Below are positions 1 through 3,000 of a DNA stretch of 7,794 nt, in pieces. The position numbers are program-made. Source of the DNA: a virus (Duplodnaviria; Heunggongvirae; Uroviricota; Caudoviricetes); IMG/VR virus record IMGVR_UViG_2537561620_000008. One strand, given 5' to 3'. Numbering within the stretch: the stretch's first letter is position 1; every line of letters starts with the position of its first letter.

Positions 1-3000
1 GATCCAGCGGTTTTGATGTCAGCCATGATGTTGGCTATACGCGCTTTGGCAGGTAATGAAAGATTAATCTGTTAATGAGTCCCACTCCGGTGGGATTTTT
101 ATGTACGGAGTTTATATGACGTGGAAAGACAGACTTCAGGACGCGTCATTTCGCGGTGTGCCGTTTAAGGTTGAAGAAGAAAATGCGGGAACCGGTCGTC
201 GTGTGGAAACGCACGAATACCCGAACCGCGACAAACCCTATACCGAAGATCTGGGAAAAGTCACTTTCCGCCCGTCCATCACGGCTTATGTGGTGGGCGA
301 TGACTGCTTTGACCAGCGCGATCGCCTGATTGACGCGCTGAATAAACCCGGTCCCGGCACGCTTGTCCATCCGACATACGGTGAGCTGAAAGTCTGTGTT
401 GACGGAGAAGTTCGGGTCAGCACATCGAAGAATGAAGGGCGTATTGTCCGCTTTGACCTGAAGTTTGTCGAAGCGGGAGAACTCTCTTACCCCACATCAG
501 GTGCGGCGACGGCGCAGACGCTGATGTCATCCTGTTCTGCACTGGATGACTGCATCAGTGACAGTTTCAGTGGTTTCAGTATCGATGGCGTGGCAGATTT
601 TGTGCAGAACGACGTCGTCGGTAATGCCAGCACAATGCTTGGGTATGTTTCTGATGCGATGAAAGTGGTGGATTCTGCCGTATCGGATGTCGCCAGGCTG
701 TTGCAGGGGGATATCTCGGTACTTCTGCCGCCGCCATCGTCAGGCAAAAATTTCGTTGAGCAGGTGCAGAAAATGTGGCGTACCGGGAAACGCCTTTATG
801 GTAACGCCAGCGACCTGGTCACCATGATCAAAACGCTTTCCGGTGTCAGCCTCGGCAGCGATCTGCAACCGCGTCGGCGTCTGGAAAACGGCAGTAAAAC
901 CACCGCACGGCGACGCAGCAGCGTAACGTGGTTGCCAGCACCCTTCGTACGACCGCAATCAGCGAAGCGGCGTATGCCGTTACCCGATTGCCTGCGCCAA
1001 CAACTTCCGCGGTGATGCAGAATGCCGCAGTGGAGCAGGCAACAACACCCGCGCAGAGCACTTGCTGGCCTTCCGCCACGCATCCGGCACTGAACAATGC
1101 ACCGGCGGTGAAAAACACGGTTGACCTGCCGACGTGGGAAGAACTGACTGACATTCGCGACACACTGAATACGGCAATTGATAAGGAGTTGTCCCGTACA
1201 ACCAGCGATGCGCTGTTTCTGGCGCTGCGCCGGGTGAAAGCAGATCTGAATGCGGATATCAACACGCGCCTTGAACAGTCTGCACGGATCATTCAGCGCA
1301 CACCGGATGAGGTTTTACCCGCGCTGGTGCTGGCGGCGACCTGGTTTGATAACGCGGCGCGTGACGCGGACATTATCCGGCGTAATGCCATTACGCATCC
1401 CGGCTTTGTGCCGGTGATCCCTCTGAAGGTGCCAGTGCAATGAACGATAACGTCACGCTACGGGTAAATGGCCGGGAGTGGAATGGCTGGACATCGGTGC
1501 GCATCGGTGCCGGTATTGAACGGCTGGCGCGGGATTTCAGTGTGGAGATCACCCGCCAGTGGCCGGGAGATGAGGGTATCACCACGCTTCAGCCGCGCAT
1601 TAAAAACGGTTCAAAAGTGGAAGTGCTGATTGGTGATGAGCTGGTGATCACCGGCTGGGTGGAGGCGACGCCCGTTCGTTACGATGCCCGTTCGGTCAGC
1701 ACCGGTATTGCCGGACGCAGTCTGACCGCTGACCTGATTGACTGTGCAGCCGAACCGACACAGTTTAACGGACGAGAGCTGGTACAGATTGCGCAGGCGC
1801 TTGCTGCGCCTTTCGGCATTGAGGTGGTGAACAACGGTGCGCCGTCGGGTGTTATTCCTGATGTTCAGCCTGATCACGGTGAAACGGTGATTGAGGTAAT
1901 CAACAAAATAACTCGGTCAGCAGCAGGCACTGGCTTACGACGACCCGCACGGCAGGCTGGTGATTGGTGGTATTGGCTCAACGCGGGCACATACTGCGCT
2001 GGTACTCGGGGAAAACATCCTTTCCTGCGATACGGAGAAGAGTATCCGGGAGCGGTTTTCTGTTTACCAGGTGGCGGGGCAGCGTGCCGGAAACGACGAT
2101 GATTTCGGTGAGGCCACCACCACCGCGCTGCGGGCCCGCACAGAGGACGCATTTATTGCCCGTTACCGTCCGATGTATATCAGGCAGACAGGGCAGGCTA
2201 CGGGGGCAGGCTGTATTGCGCGTGCTGACTTTGAAGCCCGGCAACGGGCGGCGCGGACGGATGAAACCACCTATGTGGTGCAGGGCTGGCGACAGGGTAA
2301 CGGTACGCTGTGGCAGCCCAACCAGCGGGTGATTGTCTTCGATCCGGTCTGTGGTTTCGACAATACCGAACTGCTTGTCTCGGAAGTCACGTTTACTCAG
2401 GACCAGAATGGCACTCTGACGGAAATCCGTGTCGGCCCGCCTGATGCTTATCTGGCCTGAACCCGAAGACCCCGGCGCGCGGAAAAAGAAAAAAGCCAGA
2501 GTACAGGAGGACCCGTTCTGATGAGGACGATTGAAGCCATGCAGCGACAACTCCTCGGCCTGATTGGGCGGGCCGTGGTGAAAAGCATCAGTGCCGCCAC
2601 GAAATGTCTGACCGTGGATGTGTCCCTGATTGCCGGTGAACCCAAAGCCGGGGTTGAACATCTTGAACCCTACGGTTTTACCGCAAGGGCAAACAGCGGT
2701 GCGGAAGCGGTGCGGAAGTGGTGGTGTTGTTTCCGGATGGCGACCGTTCTCATGCGGTGGTTGTTACGGTGTCGGACCGGCGCTACCGCCTGAAAGGGCT
2801 GCAGACGGGTGAGGTGGCTGTCTATGACGATCAGGGGCAGTCCGTGACGCTGACCCGGGAGGGGATCGTGGTGGACGGTGCAGGTAAAACGATCACGTTT
2901 CGCAATGCACCTGAAGCACGTTTTGAAATGGACCTGGAAGTGACCGGACAGGTGAAAGACCTGTGCGACTCCGGCGGCACCACCATGTCAGCAATGCGGC

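Follow-up and report, generated by a model that had tools for sequence, protein, structure and literature searches.

Does the 11-bp tandem duplication in a prophage spike gene of Shigella flexneri represent a real, heritable lesion that destroys the gene, and if so, how did it arise and how far has it spread? The window, by which we mean the whole 7,794-nucleotide stretch of DNA that was analysed, coincides with the full length of the 7794-bp contig AKMX01000008.1 (assembly GCA_000268245.1), and the proteins of this contig are deposited under S. flexneri K-1770. K-1770, also known as SFL1520, is a serotype 3b strain, most of whose prophages have been described as cryptic (PMC6424224). The initial annotation had noticed the 11-mer cggtgcggaag twice in direct tandem exactly where the gene changes frame, and had taken it for a clean signature of slippage or template switching that inactivates a spike gene resembling gene Q of bacteriophage Mu.

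The window covers the end of an SfV-type serotype-converting prophage that contains the tail/baseplate genes and gtrV. It is ~97% identical to and collinear with the serotype-converting phages SfV, SfI, SfII and SfIV, and collinearity with SfV extends over the whole window, from the end of the tape-measure gene to gtrB. The gene order, N-P-45-46-47-48-fibre-assembly, is collinear with the annotated SfV and SfI genomes (Table 1).

Within this Mu-type baseplate cluster, the disrupted gene, a Mu gp45/gpQ homologue of the P2 gpV type, sits between the hub (Mu P/gp44-like) and gp46-like genes. It is the orthologue of SfV orf17 (NP_599049), SfI gp19 (YP_009147465) and SfII_19 (YP_008318497), each a 'baseplate assembly protein V' of 182 aa, with which it shares ~97% nucleotide identity, the gene position and the start context; SfV orf17 is annotated as 'similar to phage Mu GP45'. 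The three orthologues differ in having one copy of the 11-mer, C at the 2719 site and one 549-nt ORF, whereas the gene takes up 560 nt in the window.

Family membership was judged with PF06890 (Phage_Mu_Gp45, N-terminal), for which the cut-off is a gathering score of 24.1 bits. When the ORF is repaired by removal of the extra 11 nt, it scores 78.6 bits over profile positions 1-68. The two pieces present in the window score 49.1 bits (the 90-aa fragment, profile positions 1-48 of 68) and 20.1 bits (the 3′ fragment, positions 47-68). Residues 5-116 of the repaired ORF also align without a gap over 112 residues to residues 14-125 of 9ki1_V ('Baseplate puncturing device gp45'), with E=1.1e-12. Thus, the naming of the gene as a Q-like spike of the Mup45 family was correct. 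The likeness to Mu gp45 (gene Q) lies in the PF06890 N-terminal domain and the position after the hub gene; the similarity is distant only, and the Mu protein has 197 aa and is intact, whereas the window copy is frameshifted after the equivalent of Mu Glu71. His162 and His164, which the downstream frame encodes, do not vary in either family alignment (A1 and A2). In Mu gp45 the C-terminal His-x-His is a metal ligand of the needle tip, and metal binding here is putative. Domains of the spike protein were mapped from the Pfam and 9ki1 alignments. An AlphaFold2 model of an intact homologue (P0002), built with a 25-sequence alignment, was too poor for use (mean pLDDT 45.6, pTM 0.29), an outcome that would be unsurprising when an obligate trimer is modelled as a monomer.

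Table 1 Coordinates of the spike locus and arrangement of the genes around it.
Feature	Position	Strand	Remarks
DNA-circulation gene (Mu N-like), then baseplate hub (Mu P/gp44-like), then spike gene			Gene series of the window
gp46-, gp47- and gp48-like genes, then tail fibre and fibre-assembly genes			After the spike gene
Shine-Dalgarno AGGAGG	2505-2510	+	10 nt upstream of ATG 2521; direct sequence reading
Mu gp45/gpQ-type central baseplate spike pseudogene	2521-3080	+	Collinear with annotated SfV/SfI genes; PF06890; 9ki1_V
5′ ORF, 90 aa, ending in TGA	2521-2793	+	Deposited as 'tail protein' EIQ21145.1
CTG, Leu30	2608-2610	+	Marks the 'L30' sub-haplotype of the duplication allele
Perfect period-11 tract, 24 nt	2695-2718	+	+11 nt frameshift lesion
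3′ remainder of the spike gene, native frame	2718-3080	+	Frame open from 2667
T, against C in every wild-type relative	2719	+	GCG (Ala63) to GTG
gtrV and start of gtrB		−	

The two copies of cggtgcggaag lie head to tail at 2697-2707 and 2708-2718, as the initial annotation had stated. The first copy is itself preceded by 'ag', which extends the perfect period-11 tract to 24 nt and leaves its unit boundaries ambiguous by 2 nt. According to Tandem Repeats Finder, the repeat spans 2695-2723 (period 11, 2.6 copies, 94% match), with one mismatch in the extension to 2723. Any perfect 11-bp tandem duplication is rare in a sequence of this kind, as the analytic expectation for the window is ~0.002 and 3 of 1500 mononucleotide shuffles of the window contained one.

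Comparison with single-copy relatives shows what was added. The wild type reads CAGCGGTGCGGAAGCGGTGGTGTTG and the window reads CAGCGGTGCGGAAGCGGTGCGGAAGTGGTGGTGTTG. In the wild-type sequence CAGCGGTGCGGAAGCGGTGGTG, as visible in SfI and SfV, the 7-mer AGCGGTG occurs as a direct repeat at a distance of 11 bp. Alignment to each wild-type relative identifies the 11-nt insertion as GGTGCGGAAGT, which matches the adjoining GGTGCGGAAGC in 10 of 11 nt. The head-to-tail copy, the short direct repeat in the ancestor and the 24 nt of perfect period 11 are the marks of slipped-strand duplication. A pure duplication would yield ...GGAAGCGGTGGTG, whereas the window has T at 2719 instead, a substitution that slippage does not explain. 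This T is present in all duplication-bearing loci examined, in complete linkage with the duplication, and a single-copy allele with T was found in none of 1093 E. coli records. Accordingly, the allele consists of an 11-nt duplication plus C to T at 2719 and is not a single clean event; the signature is less 'clean' than claimed at the outset, as the linked substitution accompanies the duplication, for which the 7-nt ancestral repeat is the likely slippage substrate. A template switch at a quasi-palindrome was considered as the source of T2719 and rejected, as the window holds no other inverted template for CGGAAGTGGTG.

The substitution also bears on which 11 nt are removed in repair. Deletion of 11 nt restores, as predicted, a single ORF of 549 nt and 182 aa, 98% identical to an intact E. 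coli protein. When one 'perfect' copy is taken out, residue 63 becomes Val, whereas it is Ala in 26 of 27 aligned relatives and Val in one distant relative; when 2710-2720 are taken out, the exact wild type returns with Ala63.

In the window, the ORF from ATG 2521 leaves the native frame at the duplication and meets a stop at 2791-2793, which makes 90 aa. The first 62 residues are those of the intact protein and an out-of-frame tail follows, in which Ala63-Val64 match the intact protein too, by chance. Downstream, the native frame stays open between 2667 and the stop codon at 3078-3080. Its part beyond the duplication encodes the rest of the N-terminal domain and a beta-rich C-terminal part with His162/His164 (NGHRHRENG), and the C-terminal 120 residues containing these invariant histidines are out of frame. 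The break follows Glu62, which corresponds to PF06890 profile position 48 of 68 and aligns with Mu gp45 Glu71, so the N-terminal domain itself is split. As the window has no uninterrupted ORF covering both domains, the locus is classed as a pseudogene, a non-functional member of the family.

The expected consequence, read from the sequence, is that the +11 shift would take ribosomes out of the native frame once Glu62, midway through the N-terminal domain, has been translated, and that translation would end at 2791-2793. The protein would then lack the remainder of the N-terminal domain as well as the C-terminal needle with its His-x-His, no functional spike trimer would form, and the duplication-bearing gene would support no infectious tail. 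We infer with good support that the duplication inactivates the spike gene, as the initial annotation held, with the qualification that the spike gene is accompanied in the window by other broken genes, most of whose breaks are private to this draft assembly. An internal start might conceivably allow synthesis of the C-terminal 103-120 aa. Such a fragment might fold, since the C-terminal domain of Mu gp45 was solved alone (3vto); no good ribosome-binding site for an internal start of the C-terminal part was seen.

The distribution of the allele was then used to judge its reality. The exact 90-aa product with Leu30 (L30) is encoded by five contigs including the window, the four others being one Logan assembly (run ERR6004804) and three NCBI assemblies. 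A form that differs from this product only in Gln30 (Q30) was listed in 31 collection blocks, 24 of whose contigs were read, among them Logan assemblies from six named runs, a 44.5-kb NCBI contig and a second K-1770 contig, AKMX01000020.1 (L010/L008; also in IMG/VR), which belongs to an SfII-type prophage. The 35-nt junction is identical in all these duplication loci, and copy-specific SNPs occur within ~100 bp on either side of it. The lesion is thus lineage-wide and not confined to AKMX01000008.1.

Outside this group the duplication is absent. The 12 close phage records are all without the added 11 nt (787-789 nt aligned to 801 nt of query), and the 1093 E. coli records, from 1085 of 5426 complete genomes, all differ from the query in an 11-nt gap alone. 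When the repaired protein is aligned with 27 homologues of at least 62% identity, no sequence shows an insertion at this site. Thus, the single-copy version aligns to intact relatives without a gap, none of which has both copies, in agreement with what the initial annotation had anticipated. Against SfV, the duplication is the only indel inside the spike gene. Exact-pattern scans for the junction, with two patterns each, gave no match in species-representative genomes or JGI metagenomes, and the sole match in IMG/VR was the second K-1770 contig. A search of the literature on SfII defective prophages found nothing on this lesion.

Leu30 stands at a position where Gln30 is invariant in the 25-sequence family alignment. 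It also occurs in two loci without the duplication, namely an SfV-type remnant (L019, IMG/VR UViG_2529292715_000010) with the same dead gtrV, and a third gp45 pseudogene of K-1770 (P0177). The remnant has a 1-bp deletion of its own in the spike gene at ~2306 (window 2870), which may be independent decay or another draft error, and it lacks ~166 bp equivalent to window 4454-4619.

The SfII-type prophage on AKMX01000020.1 carries the duplication with T, an Acyl_transf_3 gene like SfII_25, gtrB and an IS transposase; no large ORF is left at the expected place of its type-specific gtr gene. In the widespread SfII-type lineage, the contigs L009 and L011 match at every position over 9.5 kb (100% identity). 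Across 14.9 kb of head/tail genes, L009 differs from the viable phage SfII by two indels, of which only the 11-nt insertion breaks a frame and the other is an in-frame 3-bp deletion, and all gene calls in this lineage are of wild-type length. The duplication is a concrete candidate reason for an otherwise intact SfII-type prophage failing to make infectious tails.

Three other accounts of the extra 11 nt need to be weighed. They could be an assembly or sequencing artefact, absent from the bacterium. The window is indeed a draft contig with private 1-bp indels (874, 892, 906, 1910, 2454, 3222 and 7613), which mark it as an error-prone draft or a privately decayed strain. On the other hand, the identical frameshift product and the 35-nt junction recur in ~30 other, independently assembled contigs, from independent runs and assemblers and with copy-specific SNPs, which excludes an assembly artefact, and 11-nt tandem duplications are not known as typical read errors of the homopolymer type. 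We give this account next to no weight, and, judged from these assemblies, the assembly error named in the initial annotation as a ground for refutation does not apply. Alternatively, the duplication could have arisen several times, the 7-nt direct repeats acting as a recurrent hotspot. The allele is found on both Q30 and L30 haplotypes and in two prophage types, SfII-like with the acyltransferase gene and SfV-like with gtrV, as repeated origins would produce. Moreover, three rare frameshift alleles (P0173, P0174 and P0176), on E. coli contigs from Logan and ENA, lie within a few codons of the site, as two +2 nt changes and one −13 nt change in the GCGGTGGTGTTGTTT stretch. They provide no measure of a hotspot, however, because the search selected for their common out-of-frame tail. 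Besides, none of the 1085 E. coli genomes holding the gene has the duplication, and every duplication allele has the C to T change at 2719 that is otherwise unseen, so that recurrence of both changes is very unlikely. A hotspot thus appears very improbable, though recurrent slippage on a rare T-bearing background would be an alternative to the single origin inferred from the shared T.

The remaining account accepts the duplication and holds that production of the spike continues, through −1 ribosomal frameshifting in 2667-2793, complementation between fragments or a slippage on/off switch. The intact state of the other head/tail genes over 14.9 kb in the SfII-type lineage would fit a functional prophage, the required shift is indeed −1, and the two frames overlap by 127 nt. 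Furthermore, a 13-nt overlapping direct repeat can be deleted by slippage, as a switch would need. What speaks against this account is that the overlap contains neither a canonical slippery heptamer (X XXY YYZ) nor a homopolymer run of ≥5, on which ground programmed frameshifting was rejected; that relatives of the spike gene are single ORFs, none with such a split-frame arrangement; and that the N-terminal domain is cut at PF06890 position 48/68. With the break inside the N-terminal domain and no recoding signal, the locus is a pseudogene. A switch is disfavoured by the copy number of the 11-mer, which in every locus is one (wild type) or exactly two, unlike that of a contingency repeat, so the locus does not qualify as a phase-variable contingency locus; the 10-bp repeat in gtrV, by contrast, has 1.7, 9.7 or 11.7 copies. 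In the window, neighbouring genes are broken too. Continued production of the spike is, in our judgment, highly improbable.

The reading that we prefer, and hold to be very probably right, is that a real, heritable 11-bp duplication of slippage origin makes the spike gene a pseudogene, and that a single allele has spread between prophages. In this course of events, replication slippage between the wild-type AGCGGTG repeats (CAGCGGTGCGGAAGCGGTGGTG) would have duplicated the 11-nt unit, the C to T change at 2719 having come before or after the duplication. The allele would have arisen once, as its complete linkage with T2719 suggests, and would then have been inherited vertically. As both haplotypes carry it and a single genome has it in two prophages, recombination or gene conversion would have moved it between co-resident SfII-type and SfV-type prophages. 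The window itself resembles L019 to the left of the duplication and the duplication family to the right of it, and we take this mosaic, with moderate confidence, as a product of recombination or gene conversion between co-resident prophages.

Slipped-strand duplication between short direct repeats is a general source of frameshift pseudogenes in decaying prophages and in Shigella genome reduction. The present case follows this pattern in its 7-nt repeat 11 bp apart, the duplication of the intervening unit, the frameshift and the vertical inheritance. It differs in nothing essential; what is unusual is that a C to T change is linked to the duplication and that two co-resident prophages share the lesion. 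The lesion is an ordinary pseudogenising mutation in a decaying Shigella prophage and involves no new mechanism or biology. A more far-reaching scheme, which we regard as improbable, is that this single lesion 'grounded' an otherwise intact SfII-type prophage, immobilising it in a successful S. flexneri lineage, was copied to the SfV-type remnant by gene conversion, and could be reverted by slippage. Reversion by slippage is possible given the perfect overlapping tandem repeat, and if it occurs, rare cells could still release infectious serotype-converting phage. The main value of the result lies in annotation and quality control, and the duplication together with T2719 provides a compact PCR-typable marker for a prophage allele carried by ~30 assemblies.

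For quality control, the duplication has to be separated, as a real heritable frameshift, from the 1-bp indels in N, P and gp46, which are probable draft errors or private decay. Relative to SfV, 1-bp indels are located at 874, 892 and 906 (N gene), 1910 and 2454 (hub), 3222 (gp46), and 6957 and 7613 (gtrV). Those in N, hub and gp46 are absent from every related assembly examined, and the related assemblies have intact hub (359 aa), gp46 (141 aa), gp47 (352 aa) and gp48 (194 aa) genes. AKMX01000020.1 likewise has private 1-bp indels relative to near-identical assemblies. The private indels in N, hub and gp46 are probably errors of the draft assembly or decay private to the strain. In the gp48-like (YmfQ family) gene of the window, TGG is changed to TGA at 4966-4968, which shortens the product from 194 to 142 aa, and the exact 142-aa product is known only from AKMX01000008.1.

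At the other end of the window, gtrV (6313-7645, minus strand), which encodes a type-V glucosyltransferase of 417 aa when intact, is split into at least three ORFs. One of its lesions, −1T at 6957, is widely shared, as the resulting 274-aa fragment is found on 35 contigs including that of S. flexneri VA-6, while −1T at 7613 is private to AKMX01000008.1. A dead gtrV is consistent with serotype 3b of K-1770. A look-up of the 82-aa ORF in the gtrV repeat found no called gene. This repeat, at 7348-7444 on the minus strand, is made of a 10-bp unit, TTTGATATGG (CCATATCAAA on the coding strand), present in 1.7 copies in SfV, 9.7 copies in the window (an 80-bp frameshifting expansion) and 11.7 copies in L019. 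Since L019 is an independent assembly, its 11.7 copies indicate that the expansion is real and variable in copy number.
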